From IMG/VR virus record IMGVR_UViG_3300022890_000011, positions 32,001-96,000 of that record: 64,000 bases of DNA, one strand, 5' to 3'. The position numbers were made by a program, and so were the translations under genes. This DNA comes from a virus. Below are positions 2,472 through 54,930 of this stretch, piece by piece. The stretch's first letter is position 1; every line of letters begins with the position of its first letter. Below the pieces are notes generated by a model that saw nothing but the letters and a program-made list of their open reading frames with translations, was not told the DNA's origin and did no database searches.

Positions 2472-2846
2472 TTATTTCTCATTATCTTTTGTTATATCTT
2501 CTTGTTCTTCTTTTGCAGTACCAATTATTTTATCAAAGTCTTCGATATCTTGTTCAAGTTCATCCATTTTAGGTTCAATATCTTCAGAATCTATACCTTT
2601 TTGAAAGTCTTGTTTAATATCTTTTGTTGTGTCTTCGATTTTTTTACCTTGATCTTCAATTAAATCTGTACTATTTTTTAATTGATCTAATTTATCAGAA
2701 GTTGTATCTGGTTCAACATTTTCAATTTCTTCTGTTTCTTTTGATTTAGATTTTTGTTCTTCTTGATGTTTTTGAATTTTATTAGATAATTCACTTTTGA
2801 ATTCATCTGCGCTTTGTTCATTTAAGAATTCTATATAGGTTTTCAT
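2472..2846 (-). CDS. Acidic coiled-coil protein with capsid-targeting-like N-terminus (probable internal head protein)
   Basis: Starts MKTYIEFLNE, 7/10 identical to the T4 IPII/IPIII targeting sequence MKTYQEFIAE; TTAATATATA motif upstream. Confidence 0.6.
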   Translation of the reverse strand: MKTYIEFLNEQSADEFKSELSNKIQKHQEEQKSKSKETEEIENVEPDTTSDKLDQLKNSTDLIEDQGKKIEDTTKDIKQDFQKGIDSEDIEPKMDELEQDIEDFDKIIGTAKEEQEDITKDNEK

Positions 2847-2953
2847 ACTTGTTTATAGATTTGAAACTATATATTAAAATTAATAATTTAAAAAGAAAGA
2901 TTTTTTATTTAAAAAAATTTTCTTATATTAGGTTGAATTTAAAAAATATAAAT

Positions 2954-3469
2954 ATGAAGCAATCAATTTTATCATTTTACACTTTGGCAATTCTTTTTGG
3001 TTTTTTATTAACTATGGCATTACATTCATGTATTATACCACAATCAGAAGTTGGTGAGAAATTAGATGGTACACATAATTTAAAACAAACATCAGATGGT
3101 TATTATACCTATACTTTCACTAAAGTAGATGATTCGTATGAAATAAATAAAATAAACTTTTTCTGGAAAGATAGTTCTAATACTAATGTTATGACTAGAT
3201 TAAGACAAAGTGATATAAGAATTGAGTTGAATGATACTATTGAAACACCAATGGTTAAATTTAGATGGAATAGCGGTAGTTATGATAATAATTTAGAGAG
3301 ACTTGAAAACCATATTGTATATGCATTAATTATATGTAATGATGAATCGTTACCTGTGATGATTAATAAAATATCTAAATCAAAATATTTAGATTTAATA
3401 AAGGAACCTGAATTATTCTATGAAGCAGATTCAATTTCTAATGAAAAAGAAAATATAATTGAACTGTAA
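2954..3469 (+). CDS. Hypothetical membrane/lipoprotein
   Basis: Likely start MKQSILSF at 2954; hydrophobic N-terminal helix ending in lipobox-like LHSC. Confidence 0.5.
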   Translation: MKQSILSFYTLAILFGFLLTMALHSCIIPQSEVGEKLDGTHNLKQTSDGYYTYTFTKVDDSYEINKINFFWKDSSNTNVMTRLRQSDIRIELNDTIETPMVKFRWNSGSYDNNLERLENHIVYALIICNDESLPVMINKISKSKYLDLIKEPELFYEADSISNEKENIIEL

Positions 3470-3544
3470 ATTACAGAGATAAATTTTTATTTTTTGAAGA
3501 AATTTAGTATATTGATTTAAATAAACCACTAAAAAACAAAAATT

Positions 3545-4207
3545 ATGATAGATTTTAAAGAAATATTTGAAAAAATAGAAAAGAACGAAATGGTTGATAT
3601 TTACTTAGTTGAATCAACTCTGAATTATTTTATAGCTATTGAAGATTATAAAAAATGTATGGTTATTCAAAATCACATTAATTCTAAAGTTAACTCTGGT
3701 TATACAAACGACGAATATGAAATGATTAGAGAAATTGACGAACATAATAAGAAAATTGAATGGTTGGACAAAGAATTTGAAAAATCTTTAAATGGTGAAA
3801 AGGAAAAATATATTGGAAAACCAGGTAGTGAATTGTTTAAATTACATGAAATGATGTATAATTCATTGAGAGATTCTTCAACGAATAAGATTAAAAAATT
3901 ACAATCAAAATTAGATGGTACATTTGATTTTGAAGACGAAAAAAGAAAAGGTAAAGAAACAATGAAAGACTTTTTTGTTAAATGTAAAGGTATGTTAAAC
4001 GAAGAATTTGATAGAAATGTACGTGATTTGTCAAAGAATATACAAAAAGAAAAAGATGATATTGAAACTTTAGAAAAAAGTAAAACGGGAGACAAAAATC
4101 TTGATAGATTGTTAGATGAACATGTATCATCAATTAGAAAAAAGAAAGTTAAACTTGAAGAAGAGTTGTTAGAAATACAAACAATGAAAAATAAAATAAA
4201 CGAATAA
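3545..4207 (+). CDS. Coiled-coil hypothetical protein (UVR-like N-terminal motif)
   Basis: 220 aa ORF; IAIEDYKKCMVIQ motif followed by E/K-rich helices. Confidence 0.5.
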   Translation: MIDFKEIFEKIEKNEMVDIYLVESTLNYFIAIEDYKKCMVIQNHINSKVNSGYTNDEYEMIREIDEHNKKIEWLDKEFEKSLNGEKEKYIGKPGSELFKLHEMMYNSLRDSSTNKIKKLQSKLDGTFDFEDEKRKGKETMKDFFVKCKGMLNEEFDRNVRDLSKNIQKEKDDIETLEKSKTGDKNLDRLLDEHVSSIRKKKVKLEEELLEIQTMKNKINE

Positions 4208-4233
4208 AAAAAGAGAGTTTGACTCTCTTTTTT
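4206..4233. terminator. Bidirectional intrinsic terminator
   Basis: aaaaaaagagagt-ttg-actctctttttt hairpin between convergent genes. Confidence 0.75.
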
Positions 4234-4236
4234 GTT

Positions 4237-4989
4237 TTATTGTTGAGTTTTTATTCCTTGTGGTGTTGTTATTTGTTGTCCTTGTGTTAATTGTTTAGTT
4301 TGTGATTGAACTTGTTGTGATTGAACTCGAACAGTACTTGATTCTTTTGCTATATCCTTAATTTTAGAAAAAATATCACTTTCTTGTGTTTGTTGTGAAT
4401 CTTTAACTGGTAAATCAACATATTGATACAAACTCTTCCAATTTATTCCTATAATACTACCACCAAATGGTTTAAGTGAATTTTTATATGGTTTTCCTTG
4501 AACAGTATTTTCATCAACATCTTGTCCCTGTATATCTAAATTTGTTAATTCAATAATACTTCTATCACCATCTTGATTTTGGTATATGTATGAATTACCA
4601 ACTTTTAGTATATTTTTCCCGGTGCATTGTTTAGGTTGTGATAATTGATCTTTACTTCTACCGACAGGCCCGTTAATTTTACCTTCTTTATTTTTATATT
4701 TCAATTGATAAATATCACCATCAATTTTAACAAGCAATGCTGTAACTTTCATACCCTTATTTTTATAAGTATATAAATTACCTTCTTTAAATTCACTTGT
4801 AGTTGCAGGTAATGTTTGAGTTTGTGGTTGTGATTTTATAGGTAATGTTTGACCCCCTTTATTAATATGTTCTTGTCTTTTAGCTATATTTACTTGTGAT
4901 TGTGACGCACCACTTTTTCCTGATGCTATCTGTGATGTAGCTTCTTTAGCACCTGTATTTTCTTTAATAAAATTACTAAATTTTTTCAT
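4237..4989 (-). CDS. Gln-rich hypothetical protein with CTS-like N-terminus
   Basis: MKKFSNFIKE start; 250 aa. Confidence 0.6.
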   Translation of the reverse strand: MKKFSNFIKENTGAKEATSQIASGKSGASQSQVNIAKRQEHINKGGQTLPIKSQPQTQTLPATTSEFKEGNLYTYKNKGMKVTALLVKIDGDIYQLKYKNKEGKINGPVGRSKDQLSQPKQCTGKNILKVGNSYIYQNQDGDRSIIELTNLDIQGQDVDENTVQGKPYKNSLKPFGGSIIGINWKSLYQYVDLPVKDSQQTQESDIFSKIKDIAKESSTVRVQSQQVQSQTKQLTQGQQITTPQGIKTQQ

Positions 4990-4994
4990 ATTTT

Positions 4995-7517
4995 TTATTT
5001 ATTTGGTTTATATCCATAAGAATCACCAGCATTTATTTTTTTACCATTTAGTGCGTCTTTTAAATAAATAGAGGAAGAATTTATTATCATTCTTCTCAAA
5101 TCCTCCTCATCCCATGGACTTGTAAAGTCATTGTCTCCTGGTGAAGTTTTATATACTGGACAACTTCTAAAATTAAAAATATTACCTTTTTCACCAATAG
5201 AAATAAGTTTTATATATTCATCAACAGTGACATATTTACCATTACTAAAAACACCAATGTTATCTTTATTTATAACTATTGTGTCTTTTTCATCTTTGTT
5301 AACTTTAGCTTTTTGATATGTTTTGTTAATTTTTATTAAGATTGATCCTTGACCACCAACACCAGCATTTTTATCTATAGAAGTTTTATTAATGAAAACA
5401 ACATAAATATTATCTTTAAAGTCATTTGAACCAAATTTAAAATAATTAGAAGCATAAATTTTAAATTCATTTTCACTATTATCAGAATTGTATTTGTCAT
5501 TGTAATAGTATTTAGAAAGAAAATTTATTGGATTTTCACCTTTTTTTACTTCTTTTAATTTTTTAAAATCAATAAAACCTTCAATTAAAAAACAAATATT
5601 TTCCTTTTTACCAAAAATACTTTGGCTATCATCAGTTGGTGACATTAATCTACCAACTACCCCGTAATTATCAAGGGCTATTATATATGTAGAATCCATA
5701 CTTTTTGTATTTGCATTCTCCGTAACATGAAAAACATCACTTATTATATCAGAATTTTTATCTACATCTACAACATCCATACTTCCTGATGCATTAGTAA
5801 CATTTGGATTTGTATAATCTTCTTTTGCAAACATAGCAGATTCACCATTATATATTGAGAAAGGATTAACATCTTTCCATGTTAAATAATTTTGAAATAA
5901 TTGTCCAATATTTCTAATTAATGTTTTCCATTTTTTTTCTAATTTTTCTCTATCTCTAGGTTTAACTGTGAAATTTTGTCTTACATTTGGTTCATATCCT
6001 TCTCTTCTTTTATTTACAAATGTGCTTTTGTTGTCATATAACAGTAAAGCAGCTTCTTGTATTTCAGCAATTTTTATTTTATTTAATTCATTTTTTGAAG
6101 CATGTTCCTGTGGAGTTGGTGAGACATTTCGTAGACCATTAAATTTTTCTAAAACTTTCTTGTCACTTAATAATGCAGCATTTAAATTACTAAATTCTGA
6201 TTTTGGTAAAGAATCACCTAATATTTCACCAAGTCTATTTCCTTTACTAAATAATTTTTTAGCAATTTTAGATTGTTTTTTAGAACCTTCTACTTTAATG
6301 TCTTTAGCCTCTAGAATAAGAGATTCATTTTGTTGTGAATTAATTACATCGTCTATTTTTTCTATAATTCCTTTAAATTTATCATCACTATAATTAACAT
6401 CAAATCCAAATTGATCATTAACATATTTCTTAAGTTCATCTATATTTTTATAATCACCTTTAAGATCTTTATATTCTTTTAATTTGTTTTTAATAGTATT
6501 TCTAAAATTAGAATATATTGATTTTAACCATTCTTTATTTGTATCATCATTAAAATATTGTGTATTACTAATAATTTTAGAAATACTTTTTTCTATTATG
6601 AATCGTGAACATTTCAACAAGTACATATTTTGTGCTGATTGATCTGCAACTACTAAATTTGATATTTCTTTAGTAAATTCTTCTGTTATTTTTTTAATAA
6701 AGTTATATTGTGGTTGTACTTGTTGTACTTGTTGTTGATTTTGTGATTCATATTTTGTAGTACTAAATAAATCTAAATGATTACAACTATAAAGTCTATT
6801 TAGTGTTAAATTAATCCAACTTAACGCTTTTTGGTCATTTGGTTTCATCACTTTAAAATCTGGTTCATCAATCATTTCTTTAATATCTTCAGGTTTAGTT
6901 TCATTAATGTTTATAGAAGATACATTTTTTATGTAAATATCTTCAATTTTATCTGATTTTTGTTTTAAAATATCTACATTATATAAATTGTATTCTTCTG
7001 GTATCTTTATATCTGTTTTATAATCAAATGAAGTTGTATCACCTCCAGATAATAAAAATAGTCCGTATGCTATACTAAAATCTGAAGCAATATCATTTAT
7101 ATCATAAATATCATTTTTAGTAAACATTTTATTTTTAATAAATAATTGAATTTTTTCAGTTAAAGCTTTTTCAGCTTCTTTAAATGTTGATATAGCTTGT
7201 TCCATCGTTTCTTTTTCATCTTTCATTAAACCTTCTATAGTATTAACACCAGCTTTTAAGAATGTTCTAAATATAGCAGCCAAATATTCATTCTCTAATT
7301 GTCTTGAATACATAACCAATGTAGCAGTATGTTTTTTTCTTTTCATAAAACTAAAAACAGAATTAATAGCTCTACCTACCAATGATTCACTAAACCCAGT
7401 TTTATTACTGAAATCTAAAGTTTCGAATAATTTATGATCTTCATATAAATCTTCATATGAAGATTTATTTTCATAGACTTTTTTAAATTCTTTTGATGTA
7501 AAAAGGTTTTTTAACAT
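4995..7517 (-). CDS. Large hypothetical (probable virion internal) protein
   Basis: 840 aa; MLKNLFTSKEFKKVYE start; internal KLFE and LILE motifs resemble head-protease cleavage sites. Confidence 0.55.
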   Translation of the reverse strand: MLKNLFTSKEFKKVYENKSSYEDLYEDHKLFETLDFSNKTGFSESLVGRAINSVFSFMKRKKHTATLVMYSRQLENEYLAAIFRTFLKAGVNTIEGLMKDEKETMEQAISTFKEAEKALTEKIQLFIKNKMFTKNDIYDINDIASDFSIAYGLFLLSGGDTTSFDYKTDIKIPEEYNLYNVDILKQKSDKIEDIYIKNVSSININETKPEDIKEMIDEPDFKVMKPNDQKALSWINLTLNRLYSCNHLDLFSTTKYESQNQQQVQQVQPQYNFIKKITEEFTKEISNLVVADQSAQNMYLLKCSRFIIEKSISKIISNTQYFNDDTNKEWLKSIYSNFRNTIKNKLKEYKDLKGDYKNIDELKKYVNDQFGFDVNYSDDKFKGIIEKIDDVINSQQNESLILEAKDIKVEGSKKQSKIAKKLFSKGNRLGEILGDSLPKSEFSNLNAALLSDKKVLEKFNGLRNVSPTPQEHASKNELNKIKIAEIQEAALLLYDNKSTFVNKRREGYEPNVRQNFTVKPRDREKLEKKWKTLIRNIGQLFQNYLTWKDVNPFSIYNGESAMFAKEDYTNPNVTNASGSMDVVDVDKNSDIISDVFHVTENANTKSMDSTYIIALDNYGVVGRLMSPTDDSQSIFGKKENICFLIEGFIDFKKLKEVKKGENPINFLSKYYYNDKYNSDNSENEFKIYASNYFKFGSNDFKDNIYVVFINKTSIDKNAGVGGQGSILIKINKTYQKAKVNKDEKDTIVINKDNIGVFSNGKYVTVDEYIKLISIGEKGNIFNFRSCPVYKTSPGDNDFTSPWDEEDLRRMIINSSSIYLKDALNGKKINAGDSYGYKPNK

Positions 7518-8162: not shown

Positions 8163-8936
8163 ATGAAAAGATTACTCAGCTACGATAGATTCAATTTTGT
8201 TAAAGAACATATGATTACTGAAGATACTGAATTTAACCAGTATCAATTCGGTGTTGGTAATGCAAGTCCGTTGGGACCAGGTTATGGTTTTGCTGTTGAT
8301 CCAAGTTTGGGTATTTATACTGACCGAGATAGCCCATATACCGATTACTACTCTAGAACTTCAGGCTTAGTTAAAGATTTAATGGATGTTATTGATTATA
8401 CTAGAGGTAGCAAGGCCATGTCAGATGTTAAGTTTGATTATTTCATTGATGATATTTCAAAATATGAAAATATGAAAATATTAAGAATAAATGAAAATGG
8501 TAGTGGTTGGATGGATATTTTTATATCTTTTGATTTTGATGGTCAAGATTTTTTTGGTGTTTATAAAGATTTTAATAAACCATATATGAAACCAGTTTTA
8601 GAAAGTGAAATTATTTCTGGTAGACATTATGACTATATGGATAAAGAATATTATTTAAAATTAGATAATTATTTATTTAAAATATTAGAAAATTGGTTCT
8701 CACCTAAGAAAGGATTTTATAAGAATCATAAAGAATTATTACCAGTAAGAGATTCAATGGGACAAGAATATGATATTAAAAAAAATAAAGTTATTGAAAT
8801 TGTTGGTCAATATACAGACGAGAATTCAAAACAATATTTAGAAATGAAAATTGACGGTGAATTGTTTAGATTGGCTGGAAATAAATATTTTTATTTTAAT
8901 TACTGGTTTGAAGCCCTTCCAAAATTTGAATTATAA
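8163..8936 (+). CDS. Hypothetical protein with CTS-like N-terminus
   Basis: MKRLLSYDRFNFVKE; TTAATATATA at 8131-8140. Confidence 0.6.
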   Translation: MKRLLSYDRFNFVKEHMITEDTEFNQYQFGVGNASPLGPGYGFAVDPSLGIYTDRDSPYTDYYSRTSGLVKDLMDVIDYTRGSKAMSDVKFDYFIDDISKYENMKILRINENGSGWMDIFISFDFDGQDFFGVYKDFNKPYMKPVLESEIISGRHYDYMDKEYYLKLDNYLFKILENWFSPKKGFYKNHKELLPVRDSMGQEYDIKKNKVIEIVGQYTDENSKQYLEMKIDGELFRLAGNKYFYFNYWFEALPKFEL

Positions 8937-8937: not shown

Positions 8938-9390
8938 ATGAAATATCTTAAAGATTATAATTCATGGGATAATAAATTATTAAAAGAATTTTACGAAGAA
9001 ACAGATAATTTAGAAGAACTTAAAAAAAGATGTGAATATTTAATTGATAAGTTTGGAAAACCCTCACTTGGTGTACCTGATAAGGATTATTTAAGTATTT
9101 TGATACCATTATCAAATCATGAAATTATTGATTTTTTGTGTGATATTGAAAATATTAAATCTTTTTCTCTTGAAATTTTAAGACCACCTATTACACTAGA
9201 TTATAAATTTAAAATATATTTTTTAAATGAAAATAACCCTAACGATAACTATGAAATATTTGCAATTTCAAGAGAAAAAGATTTAATTTTAATTGATTCA
9301 TCATATGAACAATATAAAATTATTGAAAATATTATTTTATTTGGAGATGTTGAACAAAGAATAACTACAAATCAAATGGGTTTACTTTAA
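8938..9390 (+). CDS. Dual-tagged hypothetical protein (MKYLKDY... / ...NQMGLL)
   Basis: True start ATG 8938 directly after the upstream stop; both terminal motifs present. Confidence 0.65.
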   Translation: MKYLKDYNSWDNKLLKEFYEETDNLEELKKRCEYLIDKFGKPSLGVPDKDYLSILIPLSNHEIIDFLCDIENIKSFSLEILRPPITLDYKFKIYFLNENNPNDNYEIFAISREKDLILIDSSYEQYKIIENIILFGDVEQRITTNQMGLL

Positions 9391-9647
9391 CCTGTATTCG
9401 AAACTGTAGAACCAATAGGATTTTTACTTAATAACCCTTTAGTATATTCACCGAAAGTATTAACTGGTGGTATTTCTTTATCATCTTCTAAATTATTATG
9501 AATCTGTTTTCTTAATATTTCAAATTCTTCTGGTGTTAAATCTCTATTTAGTAATTCCATTTGTTTATCAACTGTGTGTTGAAGTATATCTTCATCAGAA
9601 GGTGTTATTTGAGTTTCAAATTGTTTATATGTTTTTATATGTTTCAT
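9387..9647 (-). CDS. Small CTS-tagged protein
   Basis: MKHIKTYKQFE; ATGA overlap with upstream gene. Confidence 0.6.
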   Translation of the reverse strand: MKHIKTYKQFETQITPSDEDILQHTVDKQMELLNRDLTPEEFEILRKQIHNNLEDDKEIPPVNTFGEYTKGLLSKNPIGSTVSNTG

Positions 9648-10057
9648 AATATTCCTAGATTAATTCCGTTTTTCGCCCATTCTAAATTTTTTAGAAGTGG
9701 TGTTAAAATTGTTTTTTTAAATTTTTTGATTTTTATTAAACTTTTCCCATCATAACCCCCAGAAGAAAAATTCATAGATGTTGGATTATTGAAATCTTTT
9801 TCTAACTTAGATAAATATTTTAGATTTTCTGTTAAAAATTCATCCAATCTTTTATAATCAGTGTGACTTTTTTTTATATTAGGTATCCATTCTATAAATG
9901 GTGCAGAATCAGACTCATCATCACGAAATATATAATATAAATTTGGGAAATCACCGCCAATATCGCCAATAAAAAAACAAAAATGTTTATGATAATATGA
10001 TTCTACCATTGGTAGTTTGTTAAATTCAAAATTTTCGTATGTTTTTAAATATTTCAT
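9644..10057 (-). CDS. Dual-tagged hypothetical protein (MKYLKTYENFE... / ...INLGIL)
   Basis: Terminal motifs. Confidence 0.65.
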   Translation of the reverse strand: MKYLKTYENFEFNKLPMVESYYHKHFCFFIGDIGGDFPNLYYIFRDDESDSAPFIEWIPNIKKSHTDYKRLDEFLTENLKYLSKLEKDFNNPTSMNFSSGGYDGKSLIKIKKFKKTILTPLLKNLEWAKNGINLGIL

Positions 10058-10060
10058 AAT

Positions 10061-10414
10061 TTAGTCTAGATCATCAATTGCATCCCAAAGTTTGTTTTGT
10101 TGTATTTTTTTATGTCTCCAATGAAAAGGATCATTTTCTTCCATTTCAATTGTATATTTTTCAAAGTTCTCAACAAAATCATTAGTCAATTTAGCTTGAT
10201 CTAATGCAAATAATAATTGTTCATAGAATTGATCTGGATTATAATCTTCTTCACAAGCCTCTATTTCAGGAAAAACATCTTTAAATGGTTCTCTACCATA
10301 CTTAAAATTAAGTAATTCTACTAACTGATAAACATCAAGAAACCCAATTATATCTTCCCATGAGTTAATATCTTCATATTCATATGCTTCATTAAATTTT
10401 CTTAAATGTTTCAT
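10061..10414 (-). CDS. CTS-tagged acidic protein
   Basis: MKHLRKFNE. Confidence 0.6.
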   Translation of the reverse strand: MKHLRKFNEAYEYEDINSWEDIIGFLDVYQLVELLNFKYGREPFKDVFPEIEACEEDYNPDQFYEQLLFALDQAKLTNDFVENFEKYTIEMEENDPFHWRHKKIQQNKLWDAIDDLD

Positions 10415-10980
10415 AAATTATATTTAATTTTAACTTCTTTTAAAGCTTCTTTATATGTATTATTTTGTGGATATTTATCACATAACATTTGTATAGATTG
10501 TGTAATTTTTAATTTATTTCCTTTAGATGACATACCTCTCCCAATAATAGTATATGAAAATCCATCAATAATTTTATTAGCTGATAAATTACAATTATTA
10601 ATATCTTCTAGATCTTCATTATTTGGTAATCTATATGATGTATATGTAAATATTTTAGGTTTACATTTTTCTATAATATCAGTTAAATCTAAAGGATAAA
10701 TAGCATTTAAATGTTCTGCACAAAATTGATATCTAGAATCTTTTTTCTCAAATTCTAATATAATTGTTTTATATGTGTCATTGTGTTCACTTATAAAATT
10801 GTCAAGATAACTTTTAATTTTATCATAATTTGTAAAATCTTTTTCAGATATTCTATTTTCTTCTGTAAGAATGTGCATCCAGTAGCTTCTAACATTATCT
10901 TCATAAGGCCATTCTGGTGGTTTAATACCTAATCCAGTCCAGTTATTATTTTCATTTAAAAATTGGTCAAATTTTTTCAT
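10411..10980 (-). CDS. CTS-tagged hypothetical protein
   Basis: MKKFDQFLNE ... KIKYNL. Confidence 0.6.
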   Translation of the reverse strand: MKKFDQFLNENNNWTGLGIKPPEWPYEDNVRSYWMHILTEENRISEKDFTNYDKIKSYLDNFISEHNDTYKTIILEFEKKDSRYQFCAEHLNAIYPLDLTDIIEKCKPKIFTYTSYRLPNNEDLEDINNCNLSANKIIDGFSYTIIGRGMSSKGNKLKITQSIQMLCDKYPQNNTYKEALKEVKIKYNL

Positions 10981-13772: not shown

Positions 13773-14243
13773 ATGATTATAAATTTTAATAATTTTATAA
13801 ATGAAAAATTAGATATTTCTGATATTGAATTATATAATACTACTATGTATGATATTGAAACTGAAATTACAAATTTAGAATATGAAATTGAAGAATTAAA
13901 AACAAAAAAAGAAGAATTCAAGGATCTACATAAGAAATTATTTTTAGAAATTATAGATCTAACAGTTAAATATGGTGAAAAATTAGATTCAGATTGTTAT
14001 AATTTAAAAATTAAAGGTATAGGAGAGTTTGATAAAATAACAATATATTTAGAAAAAGAAACAAATATTGAGGATTCTTATATAGAATTAGAAACATTTA
14101 AAAATAATAAACCTGGACCTAGTGCATCAGGTAGTGTTTATGATTTTGAAGTAGATGGTCTTGAAATTTTATATAAATATTTTTGCAATTTACCAGAAGA
14201 CTTAACACCTTATTTAGAAGCAGGAAAAATGGGACTAATGTAA
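13773..14243 (+). CDS. Dual-tagged hypothetical protein (MIINFNNFINE... / ...EAGKMGLM)
   Basis: Terminal motifs. Confidence 0.65.
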   Translation: MIINFNNFINEKLDISDIELYNTTMYDIETEITNLEYEIEELKTKKEEFKDLHKKLFLEIIDLTVKYGEKLDSDCYNLKIKGIGEFDKITIYLEKETNIEDSYIELETFKNNKPGPSASGSVYDFEVDGLEILYKYFCNLPEDLTPYLEAGKMGLM

Positions 14244-19426: not shown

Positions 19427-19477
19427 GTATTCGTATAATCATTTTTTAATATATAGATAAAATTGAATTTTTTTATT

Positions 19478-21610: not shown

Positions 21611-21686
21611 TGTTTAATTTTAGTAGAAAAATGGACATTAATTAAACTTTTAGTTTAAATTAAAGTAAATACCAAAAATACACAAA

Positions 21687-27789: not shown

Positions 27790-27814
27790 TATTTTTTTAT
27801 TAAAGAATTTTAAC

Positions 27815-27822: not shown

Positions 27823-27856
27823 ATATAATTGTAAATTAAAATTAAAAAACTTAAAA

Positions 27857-28459: not shown

Positions 28460-28476
28460 TTAATTAAAACAGAACT

Positions 28477-29580: not shown

Positions 29581-29626
29581 TGTTTTATATTTTTAATATA
29601 TAATGGTGTTAAAAATAAAATTACTG

Positions 29627-31230: not shown

Positions 31231-31270
31231 TTTTAAAATTTAATATATAATAAAAAATTAACGAAATATA

Positions 31271-33098: not shown

Positions 33099-33448
33099 TG
33101 AGACACCTAAAAACATATTTTGAGTCTTACGATGAATCGAATGACGAATTTAACGAAGAAATAATTGATAATTTTGATGAAGTTAGTGAAGAAATTATTG
33201 ACATAATTAAAAATATCGAAAATAAAACCACTGACATTGAAAGCGCGATGGAAAAATTAGACTTTATGATAGAAGGTTCTGGAGTAGAAACTATTAATAA
33301 GGGGGAAGAAGAGGATGATTATTGGTTAAATATAAAATCAATTTATGTTAATATTGGAGATCCTGATATGAAAACAATCTTTTATAATGTAGAAGATAGT
33401 GAGTGGTATTGTAAAAGTTACAATGAGTATATTAAAAAAGAGGATTAA
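33098..33448 (+). CDS. Acidic CTS-tagged protein
   Basis: MRHLKTYFE. Confidence 0.6.
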   Translation: MRHLKTYFESYDESNDEFNEEIIDNFDEVSEEIIDIIKNIENKTTDIESAMEKLDFMIEGSGVETINKGEEEDDYWLNIKSIYVNIGDPDMKTIFYNVEDSEWYCKSYNEYIKKED

Positions 33449-33459
33449 TCCTCTTTTTT
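33434..33459. terminator. 26-bp perfect palindrome centred on shared TTAA stops of convergent genes (likely bidirectional terminator)
   Basis: aaaaaagaggattaatcctctttttt. Confidence 0.6.
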
Positions 33460-38653: not shown

Positions 38654-38676
38654 TTTATTTATTTATTTATTTTTAT

Positions 38677-42159: not shown

Positions 42160-42496
42160 TTCTTTCTTTTTTATTTAATTTTTCATCATACTTTTTTTCC
42201 ATGAATATATTTCTATCTTGAATTGCATCGTTTAATGCAGGTTTAAATGCATTTTCAATCCAGTCAAGTTTAAATGATTCTTTATATTCATCTTTACTAT
42301 ATAAAACATGTTCATACTTTTTAAGTACATCAGCAATTCTTTTATTATAATACTCTATTTTATTCATATTTGAATAGTCTTCATATTTATATTCTACTTT
42401 AGTCATTTCCCATAATTTTTCATTTATCTTATACTCTTGCGAATATAAAACTATTGAAAATATACATATTAGCATTATCATAATTATTTTTTTCAT
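42143..42496 (-). CDS. Small secreted protein
   Basis: MKKIIMIMLICIFSIVLYSQ signal peptide. Confidence 0.55.
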   Translation of the reverse strand: MKKIIMIMLICIFSIVLYSQEYKINEKLWEMTKVEYKYEDYSNMNKIEYYNKRIADVLKKYEHVLYSKDEYKESFKLDWIENAFKPALNDAIQDRNIFMEKKYDEKLNKKERNEKNN

Positions 42497-43411: not shown

Positions 43412-43866
43412 TTACATTAATCCTAATTTATCAGCTTCCATTGTTGAATCATCTATTATTGAATCCATTAAAAATGATGTCAATTCAGACGAATTTATTG
43501 AAGATATTTTGTCGTGTTTATGAAATTTAAATAACCATCTTCATTTTCTTTAATTTCAATGAGTGAGTCCCAATCAAAATCAGGTAATTCTTCAACAACA
43601 TCAATATCATATTCATAGTATTTTGAATTATTAGATAGTAAGAGGATTCAAGAATTTTTATTTTCTTTAGGATATTGAATTAATATTTTATGATTTTTTA
43701 ATTTTCCTGGTATTCTTAATATAAAGATATCATGGTTTTTGTCTGAATCTTCTTCACTAAAAGTACTGAATTTTTCTAATTCCTTGATCCTGTTTATTAA
43801 TTCTTCATTTAGGTTTTTTATTTGATGATTATCATTGAATTCATAAAATTTAGTCTTCATCTTCAT
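43412..43866 (-). pseudogene. Disrupted dual-tagged gene (MKTKFYEFND... / ...MEADKLGLM)
   Basis: Frame continues past the TGA at 43648-43650 (ILLLSNNSKYYEYDIDVVEELPDFDW...), then a frameshift near 43530 leads to ...TMEADKLGLM* at 43412. Confidence 0.6.
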
Positions 43867-44179
43867 CTAATTTCTTTTTTAAATTCATTTGTAATAAAGC
43901 TTTAATTTTTTTAATAGCTTTCTTTCTTTTTTGACCTTCATTAGAAATTGGATTTTCTAGATTATCTTTCCATTTATCTTTGAATATACTACCTTTACTT
44001 GTAGCACCACCAGTTTTGTACCATTCTCCACCTATTTGTCCCCCCTGGCCACCAGCTACATTATCAGTAGATATTTGTGTTCTGTTATCGCCACTAAATT
44101 GTGTTAAATTTGGTCCGTTGTAAGTATCATATGGTACACCTTCATGTACTTTTTTATATTCTTTAAACTTTATAATCAT
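43850..44179 (-). CDS. CTS-tagged protein
   Basis: MIIKFKEYKKVHE. Confidence 0.6.
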   Translation of the reverse strand: MIIKFKEYKKVHEGVPYDTYNGPNLTQFSGDNRTQISTDNVAGGQGGQIGGEWYKTGGATSKGSIFKDKWKDNLENPISNEGQKRKKAIKKIKALLQMNLKKKLDEDED

Positions 44180-44254
44180 GTATATTTTTTAATTTTTTAA
44201 TTAAATCTTCATTATATTTAATCCTTAATAAATTTATATTTTCACTAAAATTCA

Positions 44255-44497
44255 TTATAATTTTAAATTATTCTTTTTAATTATATTTACTAAGATATTT
44301 TCAACTGATGTTAACCGTTTATCTATATTTTTGATATTACTATTAACTTTTTTAAAATTTGTTTCCATTGTTTTTCTTTGATAAGATAATTCAACTAAAA
44401 TTTTATCCATTTTATTTTCATTTAAAATATCTTCGTTTAATGTTAAATTTGGTACACCTTCATATACTTTTTTATATTCTTTAAATTTTATAATCAC
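44255..44497 (-). CDS. CTS-tagged chimeric coiled-coil protein
   Basis: N-terminus shared with 43850-44179, C-terminal part shared with 44502-44924. Confidence 0.6.
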   Translation of the reverse strand: MIIKFKEYKKVYEGVPNLTLNEDILNENKMDKILVELSYQRKTMETNFKKVNSNIKNIDKRLTSVENILVNIIKKNNLKL

Positions 44498-44501
44498 AAA
44501 A

Positions 44502-44924
44502 TTATTTTGTTTTTAAATTGTTTAAATGTATAATTTCAACTAAAAATTTATTAGTTGTATTAACATTTTGAATTGTTTCTTCTAGTCTTTTTTCAATTTT
44601 ATCAAATCTTTTTTCAAATGTTTTTCGTTGATATGATAATTCAATAAGTATTTTATCAAATTTTACATCTTCGGTTAATAAATCATATGCCTCATTTAAT
44701 TTTTCAAACATAGAACCTTCTCCTAAATTTACAATATGATTATAAACATCATTTTCAGACATATCTAATGTTTCTGCTGTATCTTCTAATGCTTGCCATA
44801 TATCACTAGATTTTTTAAATTCTTCATAATATGTATTATATACATTTTGAGATATTTTAATATCAGATTTTATTTCTGATTGTACTTGTGTTTCTAAAAA
44901 TTCGTATAATTTATGTATTTTCAT
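44502..44924 (-). CDS. CTS-tagged protein
   Basis: MKIHKLYEFLE. Confidence 0.6.
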   Translation of the reverse strand: MKIHKLYEFLETQVQSEIKSDIKISQNVYNTYYEEFKKSSDIWQALEDTAETLDMSENDVYNHIVNLGEGSMFEKLNEAYDLLTEDVKFDKILIELSYQRKTFEKRFDKIEKRLEETIQNVNTTNKFLVEIIHLNNLKTK

Positions 44925-44938: not shown

Positions 44939-45709
44939 TTAATCTAATTTTCGTGTAGTTTCTGCATCGAATAATTTCTCATTAATATAATCTATAAGTT
45001 CATTGTATTCATTGTTAGAAATAAATTTGTCAAATATTGTATTATAAAGATCATATTGATGAATAGCATTAAAAAATATATCACATTCTAATTCATCTAT
45101 ATCTTTTTCATATGAAATATTAATTCTATAAAATTCTTCTTCCATTCCTTCAAATTTAATATTATAATCACACATTTGTAGACCTGTGTCTTCAGATAAA
45201 TTGCGATTATCCATATCAACACTAACCACACCATCAATCATATTTATATCTTTTTTAATTTCGTGAAATTGTGTATTAAAATCTGATTCGTTTTCTATAT
45301 TCGATTTTATATTTTCATCTCCCCAAGTATAATTCGGTTCTGAGAAATAATTTTCAAATGTTTTTAAAAAATAATCCTCATTCATTGATTCTTTTGGATA
45401 ATCCCAGTCTGTATATTTGCTTATATACATTGTAGATTTATCTTCAGATTCATAACTTTCTTTTTTAGATTTTTTAGATTTTCTTTTAGATTTTGGTTTA
45501 TCTTTTTTCTTTTTCTTTTCATCTTTAGAAACTTGATGAGTTGAAGATCCAGCTGGAAGATCACCAGAACCTTTTATAGAACCTGCCACATCACCTGGAG
45601 TAGATGAAGGTTGAGGAGTAACCACTGCACCCATACCACCTGTATTTCCAGCGGTCGCCATTGCCATGCCTTCTTCATTTATAAAATCATTGTATCTTTT
45701 TATTTTCAT
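44939..45709 (-). CDS. CTS-tagged protein with Gly/Pro and Lys-rich segments
   Basis: MKIKRYNDFINE; internal YFLKTFE second tag-like motif. Confidence 0.6.
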   Translation of the reverse strand: MKIKRYNDFINEEGMAMATAGNTGGMGAVVTPQPSSTPGDVAGSIKGSGDLPAGSSTHQVSKDEKKKKKDKPKSKRKSKKSKKESYESEDKSTMYISKYTDWDYPKESMNEDYFLKTFENYFSEPNYTWGDENIKSNIENESDFNTQFHEIKKDINMIDGVVSVDMDNRNLSEDTGLQMCDYNIKFEGMEEEFYRINISYEKDIDELECDIFFNAIHQYDLYNTIFDKFISNNEYNELIDYINEKLFDAETTRKLD

Positions 45710-45734: not shown

Positions 45735-46232
45735 TTAATAAATTTTATTTAAAATACCACGAGACTTAATATGATACCAATCTGTAAATGTTATTTCTTT
45801 ACTGGTTTCAGATCTATATGCATCAATATTTGACATTCTGTTTCCCATCCATCCATATTTTGAAAATTCACCTGATTTTGTTTTGACATATATTTCAATG
45901 AAAAAATCTTCACCATGATAATCATAACTTTTAGTAAAAGTTTCTAAAAAACTATTAATATCAATATTCAAATTGTAAAAATAACTAATAATCGAAATAT
46001 TATTTGAAATATCATAATCCATAATTCCATTTATATTTGTTATTATTAATTTAAAATTACTATCAGTTTCTCTTAATTTAATTTCTTCTTTAGGTTTACT
46101 AAAACCTTCTAATATAAAATCATCAAAAGATTTCATATTTCTCCAAACAGAACCAGGCACTTTTTTTGGTTGAGGAGTGACTATAGGTCCCATTCCACCT
46201 TGATTTCCTTTAGTACTATATGATTTACCCAT
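45735..46232 (-). CDS. Hypothetical protein with internal CTS-like motif
   Basis: MKSFDDFILE at residue 33; preceding GGMGPIVTPQP matches the neighbouring gene. Confidence 0.55.
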   Translation of the reverse strand: MGKSYSTKGNQGGMGPIVTPQPKKVPGSVWRNMKSFDDFILEGFSKPKEEIKLRETDSNFKLIITNINGIMDYDISNNISIISYFYNLNIDINSFLETFTKSYDYHGEDFFIEIYVKTKSGEFSKYGWMGNRMSNIDAYRSETSKEITFTDWYHIKSRGILNKIY

Positions 46233-46319: not shown

Positions 46320-46895
46320 ATGATAAAAATATATGAGAATTTTGTAGAACAAAATGCAATAGTTGAGAAACTTAATGCATTAATGAAAGGATTTATGAAA
46401 ACTATTAAACAATGGTTTACAACAGGTTCATTTTCAAAACACGGTCTCACATTATACGATCTTGAAGAAAGTTCGATTACAGATAAATTAGAAAAAAGTC
46501 TGATATTTTCATTTAGTGATGATAGCAACTTTTATCAAGTAGAATTTGTCATCAGATTAGCCGATTATCAAGAAGGAATATTCAAAAAAGCTTTTCTTAA
46601 AGTTAAAAAATATGCTCTACACGAACAACCAACTGATAGTTTATCTGGTATGATGGTTGATGTGTGGGATTCTAATGATCCAAATAATAATCCAAAAGGT
46701 GATGGTCAAATTGACATTTCTGAATTTACAGAAGATAAAATTATTGACATAATCTCTGAAATGGATAATGAGCCTCAAGCTCCTGGTACTAGTGAAGAAG
46801 GTACAAAATCTATGGAGGGTGATGTTGTTAAACAAGAATTACCACAACCTCAAACACAAGAAGGTGGTGAATTACAAGATGAATTTGAATTTTAA
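46320..46895 (+). CDS. CTS-tagged acidic protein
   Basis: MIKIYENFVE; TTAATATATA at 46288-46297. Confidence 0.6.
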   Translation: MIKIYENFVEQNAIVEKLNALMKGFMKTIKQWFTTGSFSKHGLTLYDLEESSITDKLEKSLIFSFSDDSNFYQVEFVIRLADYQEGIFKKAFLKVKKYALHEQPTDSLSGMMVDVWDSNDPNNNPKGDGQIDISEFTEDKIIDIISEMDNEPQAPGTSEEGTKSMEGDVVKQELPQPQTQEGGELQDEFEF

Positions 46896-49629: not shown

Positions 49630-49872
49630 ATGAACAAAATGATGAAATTTAAGCACTTTGTTAATGAAAACCTAACCGAAAAAAGATTTATTGATAATTT
49701 CAAGGAAAAATTCTTGTTTTATTTCAATAATAATGAACTATATAATAATAAATTTAAAAAGCATATAGATAAGAGGATATATTCATTTTTTATTGATTTA
49801 AAGAAACATTATAAAAATATGAGAGAACCAGGATGGAAAGACAAATATAATCTCACAGAACATGATAACTAA
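49630..49872 (+). CDS. CTS-tagged fragment paralogous to the C-terminus of the next gene
   Basis: MKFKHFVNE; FKKHIDKRIY vs FQKHIDKRLY. Confidence 0.5.
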   Translation: MNKMMKFKHFVNENLTEKRFIDNFKEKFLFYFNNNELYNNKFKKHIDKRIYSFFIDLKKHYKNMREPGWKDKYNLTEHDN

Positions 49873-50629
49873 ATTTAAATTATTCGAAAGAAGTGATATT
49901 GAACAAAGTGAAAAATTTGAAAAAATTTCTCGTTATATATTACGTGTTATTAAAAGACACTTCAATAAATGTATTAAGAATTTTTTAGATGATGATGACA
50001 AAGAACAATTAAATAATAATTTACAATCATTAAAATATAAAGATACCACTATACAACTTGTAAAAAATATGAATATTTCATATGCTAAAGACACTACTGG
50101 TAATAAATATTTAAATATAGGTTTAGAATCAATATTAGTATTAATAAAAGAAATAGAAACTGCTGCTAAACAAGGTAAATTAACAAAAGATTATATTAAA
50201 AATGTCAATATTTATAACTTATTAGATAAGTGGGAAAAATCTGCAATTATACATGAATTAACACACAAATCTGATGATGAAACATTTGATTTATTTGGTG
50301 ATCTCTTATTAAAGATTTATGGTAAAAAAGAACCAACAAAAGAAGAAATAGAAAAAGATTCTTTTGAAAAATATATGAAAATATATAATGATATTCCAAC
50401 TGAATATAATGCATATTTTATACAAATGACAAATGTAATTATAAATAAAATAAAAATAAATCCAAAAATATTAAATTCTTTTGGTGTATTTAAAAAATAC
50501 TTTTTAATATATTTTAAACATTATTCAAATGATTTATATGATAAAGGCAGGTTTCAAAAACATATTGATAAAAGATTATATTTATTGTACCAGAATCTTA
50601 CAGATAAAGAAAAAGTCAACATTAGTTGA
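49862..50629 (+). CDS. CTS-tagged HExxH (zincin-like) protein
   Basis: MITKFKLFE; AIIHELTH and a downstream PTEYNAY glutamate. Confidence 0.55.
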   Translation: MITKFKLFERSDIEQSEKFEKISRYILRVIKRHFNKCIKNFLDDDDKEQLNNNLQSLKYKDTTIQLVKNMNISYAKDTTGNKYLNIGLESILVLIKEIETAAKQGKLTKDYIKNVNIYNLLDKWEKSAIIHELTHKSDDETFDLFGDLLLKIYGKKEPTKEEIEKDSFEKYMKIYNDIPTEYNAYFIQMTNVIINKIKINPKILNSFGVFKKYFLIYFKHYSNDLYDKGRFQKHIDKRLYLLYQNLTDKEKVNIS

Positions 50630-52247: not shown

Positions 52248-52820
52248 CTACAATAACCCCATAGAAATTGAGTCAATTATTTGTTTACAATCTGGATCTT
52301 TTAAAATATTTGGATTTATATCTAGATCATTATTCATTAATAGTTTAAAAAATTCTAAGTTATTATTTATTAAATATTTTTGTATTACTTCTGTTTTAAA
52401 AAAATTACTTGAATATAAATTTTGATACATTCTATATGAAATTAATTTATCTAAACTAACTCTTTTATCTAATAAATAAATAAATTTTAAAACGTCTGAA
52501 TTATCAAATGCATCTACAACACCTAATTCTAAATCACTTTTAAGATAATATTCTGATACTTTCCATTTCTTACCACAATCTTCGGAAAAACAATCTTCAA
52601 TAAATACATTATCTCCAATAAATCTACCTTTTTTAAAATCTATTTTATTATCATATTTTTTCATAGATTCTATGAATTGTTCACCATGTAACCATCTAAT
52701 TAAATAAGATAAATTTGGCATTGAATTTGTAATATCTCTATCAAGAGGATCTTCAAATACAACACTAAAATGATCATGTTTTGCCCATTTATCTTCATTA
52801 TATTTCTTTAAATGATTCAT
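52248..52820 (-). CDS. Dual-tagged protein (MNHLKKYNE... / ...SISMGLL)
   Basis: Terminal motifs. Confidence 0.65.
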   Translation of the reverse strand: MNHLKKYNEDKWAKHDHFSVVFEDPLDRDITNSMPNLSYLIRWLHGEQFIESMKKYDNKIDFKKGRFIGDNVFIEDCFSEDCGKKWKVSEYYLKSDLELGVVDAFDNSDVLKFIYLLDKRVSLDKLISYRMYQNLYSSNFFKTEVIQKYLINNNLEFFKLLMNNDLDINPNILKDPDCKQIIDSISMGLL

Positions 52821-52981
52821 TATTTATTATATATATTTAAATTTCCTTTGAAAAAAGAATTAATTAGAAGTTAAAATAATATCATAATCTTGCACCAATT
52901 ACTTAATTGGTGGAATTTAGTTGCTGAAAATTCTACTAGTCGCTGAATTAGACGTTACTAACTATTAAATATTCATTTCAT

Positions 52982-53065
52982 TTAGTTTTTTATATCAACG
53001 AGAGCTTTATTATCAAAATCAATTTCGTCATAGATTTTTTCGTTATATTTTTTTAAGTATTTCAT
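52982..53065 (-). pseudogene. 27-aa CTS stub MKYLKKYNEKIYDEIDFDNKALVDIKN
   Basis: ATGA overlap with the upstream LGLL* gene; early stop. Confidence 0.55.
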
Positions 53066-53502
53066 AATAGTCCTAATTCACCTCCTTGTAGTATATATTC
53101 ATATTTATTTTCTTCTACCCAATTATAAAAATTATATTGAGTAGGATGATGTCCATTTGGATCTGAAAAATATATATCTTCTGTTTCAGCTGTTAATGTA
53201 TAATATAATGGTTCACTTTCTACACTTCCTTCATTTATTACAATAAACCAAATAAAATTTGGTTCTTTTTCAGCTTTAATTTTAATGTAATTTAAAAATT
53301 GTTGTTTTGTTCCTGATGTCATGTTTCTATTTCCAAAAACTATGATATCATCATTATAATGTTCACACATTAATTTAATTGCATTAACAATGTCTTTTCC
53401 TTTTATAAATTTATATCCCCATGATTTTTGATGATTTGTTGGTTTATCATTTTGTATAGGTTTCGATTTAAAAAAGCCTTCGTATGTTTTTAGATTATTC
53501 AT
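53062..53502 (-). CDS. Dual-tagged protein (MNNLKTYE... / ...GGELGLL)
   Basis: Terminal motifs. Confidence 0.65.
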   Translation of the reverse strand: MNNLKTYEGFFKSKPIQNDKPTNHQKSWGYKFIKGKDIVNAIKLMCEHYNDDIIVFGNRNMTSGTKQQFLNYIKIKAEKEPNFIWFIVINEGSVESEPLYYTLTAETEDIYFSDPNGHHPTQYNFYNWVEENKYEYILQGGELGLL

Positions 53503-53508
53503 TTAAAT

Positions 53509-53530
53509 TATATATTAATTTTAATATATA
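53509..53530. promoter_or_regulatory. Back-to-back TTAATATATA putative late promoters
   Basis: tatatattaa-tt-ttaatatata between divergent tagged genes. Confidence 0.6.
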
Positions 53531-53536
53531 ACAATA

Positions 53537-53962
53537 ATGAAATCATATGAAAAATATATAGAATTTAATAAAAAGATTGAATCTTTAAAAAGTGAAATGT
53601 GTATTGAACTTTATAATGAGTTATTAAAAATGAAAAAGTTTGGTGTTAAACCAGAGAGTAATAGTCAAGGTTTAGATCTTATAATACCTTTTAAAGTTAA
53701 AATTTATGATAATGATTATAATGGATTTGGTATTTATTATCACAGGGTACAAGGTAGAGAAAATATTAGTATATATGTTGGTATTGTAGATGATATTGAT
53801 AATTTTGGTTGGGAGGGGTTAATTATAACAGTTTCTGTTAAAGGTTATATTCAAGGAGATTTGATTGAAAATGAACAAAATAAACAATTTAAAATAATAT
53901 TTAAGTTTTTAATGGAAGATGCTCTGCCATATTTAGAGTCAAGAAATTTAGGATTAATGTAA
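53537..53962 (+). CDS. Dual-tagged protein (MKSYEKYIE... / ...SRNLGLM)
   Basis: Terminal motifs. Confidence 0.65.
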   Translation: MKSYEKYIEFNKKIESLKSEMCIELYNELLKMKKFGVKPESNSQGLDLIIPFKVKIYDNDYNGFGIYYHRVQGRENISIYVGIVDDIDNFGWEGLIITVSVKGYIQGDLIENEQNKQFKIIFKFLMEDALPYLESRNLGLM

Positions 53963-54502
53963 ATGAAGTATTTAAAAACATATTCAGAAAATCAATTAAT
54001 TAAAGACCATTTAAGTGATAATGGTAAAACATTAGATTTATCTAATTTAGATTTAACTGAATTACCTGAATTACCTGAAGGATTAGAAAGATTATATTGT
54101 GGTAATAACCAATTACCTGAATTACCTGAATTACTTAAAGAATTAAAAGTATTATATTGTTATAATAACCAATTAACTAAATTACCTGAATTACCTGAAG
54201 GATTAGAAAGATTATATTGTTATTATAACCAATTAACTAAATTACCTGAATTACCTAAAGGATTAAAAAGATTATATTGTTATTATAACCAATTAACTAA
54301 ATTACCTGAATTACCTAAAGGGTTAGAAGTATTATCTTGTTATTATAACCAATTAACTAAATTACCTGAATTACCTAAAGGGTTAAAAATATTAGATTGT
54401 GATTATAACCAATTAACATATAAAGATTTAGATGGTTATTGGAAATGGTTTTGGAAAGAAAATCCAGACCTTCATAATGCAAATAAAATGGGATTATATT
54501 AA
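53963..54502 (+). CDS. Dual-tagged leucine-rich-repeat protein (short 20-aa bacterial LRR)
   Basis: Six LPELPxGLxxLYCxxNQLTK repeats encoded by ~60-bp tandem DNA repeats; MKYLKTYSE ... NKMGLY. Confidence 0.85.
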   Translation: MKYLKTYSENQLIKDHLSDNGKTLDLSNLDLTELPELPEGLERLYCGNNQLPELPELLKELKVLYCYNNQLTKLPELPEGLERLYCYYNQLTKLPELPKGLKRLYCYYNQLTKLPELPKGLEVLSCYYNQLTKLPELPKGLKILDCDYNQLTYKDLDGYWKWFWKENPDLHNANKMGLY

Positions 54503-54901
54503 ATGAAGTATTTAAAAACATATGAAGAGTTGTTATATGTAAATTATAAGTATGTTATAGTTTGTAAAAATGAAAAAGAATTTGTTGATGTTCAAAAATA
54601 TATTAAAAAGAATGTACCACAGATAAAATTCAATTTTCAAAAATCTTATTATGATGTTAAAAATGATTTTATTAGTAGTTCAGATTTTAGTAGTAACAGA
54701 ACAATAGATGAAGTTTATCCTAATTTGAAAGATGAAAACTCACCTATTTTTCTTTATATTTTACCAGATTTAGAAATTATTACAGGTGATATTGATAAGT
54801 GGATTGAATATTATGATAAAAAAGGAATACCAGTTATAAAAGGCAATGATATTGAACAATTATCAGTATTTATAGAATCAAAAAAATTAGGACTAATGTA
54901 A
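54503..54901 (+). CDS. Dual-tagged protein (MKYLKTYEE... / ...SKKLGLM)
   Basis: Terminal motifs. Confidence 0.65.
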   Translation: MKYLKTYEELLYVNYKYVIVCKNEKEFVDVQKYIKKNVPQIKFNFQKSYYDVKNDFISSSDFSSNRTIDEVYPNLKDENSPIFLYILPDLEIITGDIDKWIEYYDKKGIPVIKGNDIEQLSVFIESKKLGLM

Positions 54902-54930
54902 TGAAGTATTTAAAAACATATGAAGATTAA
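54901..54930 (+). pseudogene. Empty 9-aa tag-only ORF MKYLKTYED*
   Basis: ATG AAG TAT TTA AAA ACA TAT GAA GAT TAA overlapping the upstream stop. Confidence 0.65.

Follow-up and report, generated by a model that had tools for sequence, protein, structure and literature searches.

A portable N-terminal tag on 54 proteins of an uncultured phage resembles the capsid-targeting sequence of T4

The internal proteins IPI-III and the Alt protein of bacteriophage T4 carry a capsid-targeting sequence that is removed by the protease gp21 (PMC3012670; sequence string in PMC8442874). About 1000 internal-protein molecules are carried by T4, and the same sequence loads foreign proteins into its heads (PMC3012670). 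In the giant phages phiKZ and SPN3US, head and ejection proteins are processed by a gp21-related protease (PMC7411985, PMC10052503, PMC5694885), and the SPN3US head contains about 50 proteins, with more than 40 MDa of ejected protein (PMC7411985). Polyvalent and Dar-type anti-restriction proteins are packaged by phages such as P1 (PMC5512222, PMC9024508). Here we describe a short N-terminal tag shared by 54 open reading frames (ORFs) of a 166.6-kilobase (kb) IMG/VR contig of 25% G+C (IMGVR_UViG_3300022890_000011), many of them located in the 64,000-nucleotide stretch that covers its positions 32001-96000 (hereafter the window, to whose numbering coordinates refer unless the contig or a locus is named). 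In the best available reading, which we favour with moderate confidence, the tagged proteins would be loaded into the capsid and the tag removed proteolytically. Our literature searches found no paper describing such tags, or linking huge phages with a capsid-targeting tag.

A simple longest-ORF caller delimited 250 ORFs covering 94% of the contig, the completeness of which was estimated at 58% by CheckV. The curated tagged set amounted to 9,402 amino acids (aa), 18% of the coding capacity and about a fifth of the genes of the contig. Under a strict definition of the tag, i.e. the 4-mer [LI][KRN][KTSL][YF] starting at residue 4, 28 of the 250 ORFs were tagged against 0.48 expected from the frequency of this 4-mer elsewhere in the proteome, so that the shared N-terminal motif reported in the original prediction, a reading of the window made from its letters alone, stands far beyond expectation. 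Just 4 of 910 internal methionines bore the core 4-mer, and nearly all of its occurrences in the six-frame space of the contig headed real ORFs. A position matrix reached at least 6 bits at 31 of the 250 N-termini versus 13 of 45,936 internal windows; this matrix was derived from the strict tag set and is circular for its own members, the null comparison being still informative. A long form, [FY]xx[FY][ILVF]xE at residues 4-7, was found in 11 of the 250 ORFs (1.1 expected). The N-termini quoted in the original prediction were all recovered at ORF starts, the one at 8938 (+) being overlapped by a TTG-extended ORF, and its figure of about 30 tagged proteins within positions 2472-54930 was slightly high, the count being 25 curated tagged ORFs plus two truncated remnants. 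It had also held that these proteins share no other similarity. Once the first 14 residues were removed, 46 of the 54 tagged proteins indeed resembled no other ORF of the contig (blastp, E<1e-4), the exceptions being four leucine-rich repeat (LRR) paralogues and two small pairs.

The tag is 8-13 residues long and occurs mainly in a short form, with the consensus M-K-[YH]-[LI]-K-[TK]-[YF]-(x)-E; in the long form this is extended with, or replaced by, [FY]-x-x-[FY]-[ILV]-x-E, the pattern of the T4 capsid-targeting sequence. The two forms grade into each other, and both are combined within the 13 residues that open the polyphosphate kinase 2 (PPK2) encoded at 29627. In 43 of the 54 tagged proteins the first Glu is one of residues 8-11, whereas its position in untagged proteins shows a flat distribution. 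A hydrophobic-x-Glu motif, often with Tyr or Phe instead of Leu or Ile, closes 41 of the 54 tags (27% by chance), hydrophobic-Asn-Glu closes 19 (chance 2.6% each, p 5e-17), and Asn is the most frequent residue directly after the tag Glu. In an AlphaFold model of the tagged LRR protein encoded within 53963-54901 (+) (pLDDT 91), residues 1-6 scored below 50 and the repeat body above 90; in this model the tag is outside the fold, and its disordered residues have the look expected of a detachable leader.

As in T4, accessory proteins that change fast and have nothing else in common open here with a leader of ~10 residues, which shows the aromatic/aliphatic spacing and the terminal Glu of the T4 capsid-targeting sequence; the best tag, MKTYIEFLNE on the 124-aa acidic protein encoded at 2472-2846 (-), is identical to that of T4 at 7 of 10 residues. 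The relatives of this phage also encode, like T4, a gp21-type protease, a gp23-type capsid protein and a gp20-type portal. Unlike in T4, which has a handful of tagged proteins, there are here 54 in 166 kb, with a dominant short form (M-K-Y-L-K-T-Y-x-E), a preference for Asn before Glu and, in ~40% of the tagged proteins, a second, C-terminal tag; moreover, the protease of the relatives is fused to a scaffold of tag-like repeats, and the tag system described here is known from sequence only. The original claim of a cargo far larger than that of T4 is fair, but SPN3US and other giant phages are already known to have as many as about 50 different proteins in their heads (PMC7411985). With phiKZ and SPN3US, the likeness lies in giant phages, heads of about 50 proteins, a large ejected mass and a protease cutting after Glu. 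Their processed proteins reportedly have long, dissimilar propeptides, and work on phiKZ reportedly found a small residue (Ser, Ala or Gly) two positions before the Glu of the cleavage sites. Here, by contrast, a single short tag is shared, and the position two before Glu is taken by an aromatic residue, an aliphatic one or Thr (50 of the 54 tags have Y, T, L, F or I there). Like the polyvalent and Dar-type proteins, the tagged proteins would be accessory and conflict-related, carried in the virion and delivered with the DNA; unlike those few very large multidomain proteins, or their dedicated loading hierarchy, they are many small single-domain proteins with a common peptide.

The tag was compared with the head machinery of related contigs, namely G002 (344 kb, 25% G+C), G004 (348 kb), G005, G007, G010, G011 and LR756501 (735 kb), and of a cultured relative, the Tenacibaculum phage PTm1. 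G002 carries 29 strict tags and has the C-terminal tag and the promoter-like motif in common with our contig. It also encodes a Gp23-family capsid protein (95 bits), a protease-scaffold protein of 811 aa and a T4 portal (227 bits). The protease domain of G002 (L065:7303-7902 (-)) gave BLAST matches to T4 gp21 (E 5e-4) and, in PTm1, to the "prohead core scaffolding protein and protease" (E 6e-19). A single-sequence search of the PDB with this domain gave no match; a four-domain protease profile had there a sole match, T4 protease gp21 (5JBL, E 1e-6), the His85 and Ser140 of which are invariant in the protease domains of the relatives. The capsid proteins of G002 and LR756501 share 64% identity, the latter genome being placed within the Mahaphage clade, with predicted Bacteroidetes hosts (PMC7162821). 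The gp21-type protease was found in the tag-bearing G002, G005 and LR756501, and full-length Gp23-type capsid genes also in the tag-bearing G005, G007, G010 and G011. In the Mahaphage-type relatives the protease is fused to the scaffold (L065:5467-7902 (-), L063:1435-3351 (+) and L135:17499-19922 (+)), and PTm1 has the same fusion with other repeats.

The scaffold half itself resembles the tag. In G002, G005 and LR756501 it consists of 11-14 tandem 14-residue repeats around Y-S-E-Y-[IL]-A-E, a core very near the Y-Q-E-F-I-A-E of the T4 tag, and the long-tag pattern has 13 matches in the G002 protease-scaffold versus at most 2 in any other of the 511 G002 proteins. The T4 scaffold gp22 starts with M-L-K-E-Q-L-I-A-E, and T4 gp21, gp67, gp68 and gp24 likewise open with short leaders ending in [LI]-x-E. 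The tag ending recurs in the capsid precursors of six relatives, which share E-Y-A-E-x-H-x-[MIL]-N-E-N about 40 residues from their start, a candidate cut site suggested by its conservation, and L-N-E-S and F-N-E-S stand at the protease-scaffold junction of the relatives. Because the tag resembles the head-loading tag of T4 and, in most cases, has an ending similar to those at which a T4-type head protease cuts, the tagged proteins are probably packed into the capsid.

One tagged protein and three small genes of the contig would extend this link to the phage itself. The 256-aa protein encoded at 44939-45709 (-) bears a 12-residue long-form tag ending in I-N-E, followed directly by a stretch that aligns to residues 43-89 of the G002 capsid protein, from the N-E-N motif on (E 8e-7), then by a Lys-rich linker and an unrelated domain. 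The small gene upstream of it (45735-46232 (-)) opens with that capsid-like stretch and lacks a tag. A 135-aa untagged protein (63316-63723 (+)) holds a conserved piece of T4-type head protease, then scaffold-like repeats (phmmer E 2e-5 to the G002 protease-scaffold), and a small gene at contig positions 8689-8970 (+) likewise holds protease and scaffold-repeat pieces. These copies of protease and scaffold pieces in small genes suggest that the phage has head genes of its own of the G002 type.

The PPK2 family revealed how the tag is conserved between orthologues. Among the 120 best homologues of the tagged PPK2, 64 were of at most 410 aa and 56 of 521-546 aa. At least 27 of the 64 shorter ones were tagged, with the approximate consensus M-[KN]-x-L-K-x-Y-D-D-F-[VIL]-N-E, and a dozen further ones bore near variants of it, whereas none of the 56 proteins of cellular length, one of them named from a Flammeovirgaceae bin, was tagged. 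Orthologues that are ~50% identical thus combine a conserved body with a tag varying around one consensus, which argues that the tag is a portable peptide, selected at the protein level. Full-length PPK2 matches in the phage collection came only from 634-735-kb Mahaphage genomes, and the PPK2 of the 735-kb LR756501 opens with a long-form tag. The viral or cellular origin of the tag was assessed with a 21-base DNA pattern encoding the short form, searched in IMG/VR and in 596 Gb of prokaryote genomes. In IMG/VR the pattern occurred in 54 stretches, nearly all heading ORFs of at least 60 aa with a Glu following, on contigs of 20-42% G+C. The prokaryote genomes yielded 22 matches, mostly in short or out-of-context ORFs, and ~4 tag-like ones on contigs of 20-24% G+C from metagenome bins, with other tagged ORFs nearby. 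By this measure the tag is viral.

Tagged genes were also distinguished by a promoter-like motif. The sequence ATATATA lay 10-40 nucleotides (nt) upstream of 27 of the 87 operon-leading genes, versus a mean of 6.0 and a maximum of 13 in shuffled upstream regions. It is exemplified by AATATATA at 29595-29602 (+) and usually stands 17-30 nt before the start codon; further motifs end at 8140, 13747, 31249 and 46297 on the (+) strand and at 2868, 13742, 19045 and 52830 on the (-) strand. Motif-led operons (motif within 5-40 nt) contained 48 of the 54 tagged versus 57 of the 196 untagged genes (p 1e-15), and in G002 42 of 60 tagged versus 138 of 451 untagged genes. The genes that it precedes in G002 include those for capsid, protease-scaffold, portal, sheath, neck and terminase, and this link with head genes suggests that the tagged genes belong to a promoter class driving virion genes, the timing of which we infer from sequence. 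In our contig it precedes the giant fibre-like genes, and several tagged genes close operons with very large fibre-like proteins. The motif is absent before the DNA polymerase, CTP synthase, ClpP, ClpC-like and FtsH-like genes of this contig, and none of the 90 genes at contig 87-136 kb is tagged.

We propose that the tag would act as a removable N-terminal address label. Tagged proteins would be made together with the head proteins; the tag, resembling one scaffold-repeat unit of the relatives, would draw them into the core that the scaffold forms in the prohead as it grows; a prohead protease of T4 type (S77) would cut after the tag Glu, as in the scaffold and the capsid precursor; and the mature proteins would remain in the head and probably exit with the DNA. 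The presence of such a protease in this phage is presumed, as are binding, cutting, packaging and injection. One copy each of the 54 tagged proteins would weigh ~1 MDa, a load that is physically plausible given the T4 internal-protein and SPN3US head contents. More tentatively, and with less than even chances in our estimation, the tag could be exactly a single scaffold-repeat unit, such that any protein endowed with one unit would co-assemble with the scaffold and be released by the same protease. This would constitute a portable code for about a hundred injected proteins, around a fifth of a Mahaphage-type gene set, with the C-terminal tag sorting or docking a subset of the cargo.

Several observations weigh against capsid loading. 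No capsid, portal or protease gene was detected in the contig with Pfam (Peptidase_S77, Gp23, Portal_T4) or by BLAST with T4, PTm1 and G002 proteins, and only 19 of its 250 proteins are shared with G002, so that the T4 link rests on the relatives and on the three small genes described above. The likeness to T4 in the original prediction is real, and goes beyond what its reader saw, but it concerns a contig devoid of these head genes, and about a quarter of the tags break the hydrophobic-x-Glu rule: the residue two before Glu is Thr, Lys or Gln in 13 of the 54 tags (the K-T-Y-E form), a misfit to T4. In alignment, the N-E-N motif of the relatives is out of register with the known cut site of T4 gp23. 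No such tags were found in the 45 kb of PTm1 examined. The contig G004, rated complete, has ~20 tags and PTm1-like neck and tail genes with no detectable capsid, portal or protease gene, and Pfam gave nothing on ten of its large proteins as to its head type. This lack makes its completeness call look doubtful and, because T4/PTm1-like neck and tail genes are present, G004 probably lacks its head module through incompleteness rather than possessing another head type. The promoter-like motif is found before ClpC-like and GuaC-like genes in G002 too, and before TnpB genes in our contig, the Thr codon of the tag points to spread at the DNA level, ClpP, ClpC-like and FtsH-like proteins are encoded in the contig, the ClpC-like one being common to all three tag-bearing genomes compared, and a fifth of all genes would make a very large cargo set. 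The 100% completeness rating of G004 (loci L094-L111) stems from inverted terminal repeats.

The Clp and FtsH genes raise the question of whether the tag would instead be a degron or adaptor handle for the AAA+ enzymes of the phage, with timed unfolding, degradation or hand-on of the tagged proteins and a second signal at their G-L-L ends. Clp and FtsH substrates are usually recognised via terminal peptides and, like the degrons of ClpXP, ClpAP and FtsH, the tags are short, terminal and portable, with the cognate enzyme classes encoded here: a bona fide ClpP (215 bits; L005:18107-18766 (+), contig 128.1 kb), a two-ring ClpC/ClpB-like ATPase without N-domain (L005:3199-5205 (+), contig 113.2 kb) and an FtsH-like protein with an M41 domain (L004:14229-16508 (+), contig 108.2 kb). 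A role as degrons or unfoldase handles is thus conceivable for the terminal tags, and their pairing is in keeping with this: a C-terminal tag, [KN]-[ML]-G-L-[LIMY], ends 21 of the 54 N-tagged versus 11 of the 196 other proteins (e.g. 9644-10057 (-), 13773-14243 (+), 30814-31230 (+), 52248-52820 (-), 53062-53502 (-) and 53963-54901 (+)). Each tag also occurs alone, and the C-terminal one differs between lineages (K-Y-N-I or K-F-N-I elsewhere) while the N-terminal one is constant. The ClpC-like gene is 43-44% identical in G002 and G004, but ClpP was not found in either, and three related genomes are non-independent evidence of co-occurrence. ClpA/ClpX-like proteins of jumbo phages may themselves serve as translocases or in virion assembly, as proposed by Iyer et al. 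(PMC7824862). A degron would leave unexplained the fixed-distance Glu, the recurrence of the hydrophobic-Asn-Glu ending in capsid precursors, the resemblance to scaffold repeats, the tag-plus-capsid-arm protein at 44939-45709 and the promoter link with head genes; no degron is known to have motifs in common with capsid precursors or scaffolds. We judge this reading unlikely, if the foremost of the rivals.

Next in order, and improbable too, is a label, cleaved or not, for assembly or localisation outside the capsid, in the tail, the fibres or a membrane structure of PspA/IM30 type (28477-29529). It would suit the tagged genes that close operons of very large fibre-like proteins, the PspA-like protein and coiled-coil neighbour encoded in the contig, and the tags of G004 in the absence of detectable T4-type head genes; yet no candidate receptor resembles the tag whereas the head scaffold does, and the neck and tail genes of G004 point to incompleteness. 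We give the lowest probability to the shared start being mainly a feature of DNA or mRNA, i.e. a conserved 5' cassette that spreads by recombination between gene starts or helps translation to initiate in a very AT-rich genome, and whose peptide would have no role. Many tagged genes form tandem arrays in which stop and start codons overlap, tag-only truncated remnants lie at 54901 and 53065, Lys is a common second residue in this genome, and the tag Thr is always ACA (18 of 18, 9.7 expected). Nevertheless, the tag codons for K, Y, L, E, N and H track the synonymous usage of the genome while the residues remain constant or are conservatively replaced (L/I, Y/F, K/R), which makes a pure DNA cassette unlikely; the consensus is kept in PPK2 orthologues ~50% identical and on contigs of 20-42% G+C, and upstream of tagged genes no DNA is shared save the promoter-like motif of operon leaders. 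The invariant ACA, the tandem arrays and the tag-only remnants indicate that the tag DNA also spreads by duplication and recombination, as at the T4 internal-protein locus, and recombination through tag-coding DNA is compatible with capsid loading.

If the tagged proteins are indeed loaded into the capsid, the largest known phages would deliver a ready-made proteome with their DNA, beyond a few internal proteins, and many "hypothetical" accessory genes would be candidates for effectors that act on host defence or metabolism within the first minute, including the polyphosphate kinase and the LRR proteins. The tag would then provide a sequence rule to predict virion cargo in uncultured phages, and it supplies a short peptide with which foreign proteins could be packed into large capsids. 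Its match to the scaffold repeat suggests how the T4 targeting sequence works, a still unsettled matter. Were the tags degrons instead, they would reveal phage-run timed proteolysis on an undescribed scale.

Along the window, the gene of the acidic protein at 2472-2846 (-) leads an operon with a 1044-aa protein extending past the window start, with the promoter-like motif 21 nt upstream. A 250-aa protein with a long-form tag and no Pfam family (4237-4989 (-)) closes an operon holding an 840-aa protein. Loose tags open a 257-aa protein whose first Glu is residue 15 (8163-8936 (+)) and a 150-aa protein starting with MKYLKDY, of loose short form (8938-9390 (+)). They are followed by four successive tagged genes (86, 137, 117 and 189 aa; 9387-10980 (-)) with overlapping stop and start codons, three of short and one of long form, and by a 156-aa protein with a long-form tag and a K-M-G-L-M C-terminus (13773-14243 (+)).

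The PPK2 (396 aa, 29627-30817 (+)), the true start of which is the second Met, 24 nt past the promoter-like motif, is followed by five genes in two operons (30814-33448 (+)), of which four are tagged (138, 293, 207 and 116 aa) and the fifth, of 113 aa, is not. Three small tagged genes (109, 80 and 140 aa; 43850-44924 (-)) are partly interrelated. The operon of 44939-45709 is led by a 165-aa untagged protein beginning with the same capsid-N-arm-like stretch (45735-46232 (-)); capsid-fragment mini-ORFs like this one also occur in G003, G004, G005, G007, G009 and G010. Beyond it lies a 191-aa protein with a long-form tag, itself an operon leader (46320-46895 (+)). Two tagged genes (77 and 255 aa) occupy 49639-50629 (+), and two others (190 and 146 aa), both ending in G-L-L, 52248-53502 (-), with a 27-codon remnant beginning with the tag at 53065 (-). 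The region 53963-54901 (+) encodes two tagged proteins that also bear the C-terminal tag, an LRR protein (179 aa, LRR_4) and one of 132 aa, next to a nine-codon remnant consisting of the tag then a stop (54901-54930 (+)). The original prediction had named an enzyme, an LRR, an HExxH and a WYL-like protein among the cargo: the PPK2 (Pfam PF03976, 268 bits) and the LRR protein (Pfam, 96 bits) were recovered as such, the HExxH protein reduced to a bare HELTH motif in 49862-50629, without family match in Pfam, and a WYL-like protein was not found.

In the region 27307-29529, the 350-aa protein at 28477-29529 was considered as a capsid protein and 27307-27789 as a protease, for which Pfam, PHROGs and PDB sequence searches returned nothing. 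The Atlas match of the former is PspA/IM30-like and that of a 637-aa neighbour corresponds to fibre-like proteins, so that this presumed head region leaves the window without a head module. A related-locus search with the 350-aa protein retrieved one distant contig, bearing a different leader, M-I-T-T-[IL]-K-E-F. This ESCRT-III-like PspA/IM30 look-alike follows a 200-aa coiled-coil protein (27857-29529 (+) for the pair); related proteins occur in Lak megaphages, in Ralstonia phage RsoM2USA and in bins of Bacteroidota.

Among the other features of the genome, a probable fibre protein of 715 aa contains YadA-head and ice-binding beta-roll repeats, and a sulfotransferase comes after it (19463-22502 (+)). 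A DnaJ-like gene lies at 33445-34476 (-), and proteins of 1350, 1160 and 117 aa with Bacteroidota-style signal peptides are encoded at 34601-42496 (-), the two largest being paralogues of each other and of a 274-aa neighbour. A TnpB-like 388-aa protein (contig 165429-166595 (+)) is 100% identical in the 348-kb contig G001 (L010), which shares few other genes with ours, and two more TnpB-like paralogues are located at contig 5783-6982 and 126078-127301. Finally, about nine proteins encoded at contig 99-108 kb and 147.5 kb start with M-K-I-R-x-G-F-V-S-N-S-S-S-S-S and form a separate leader family.

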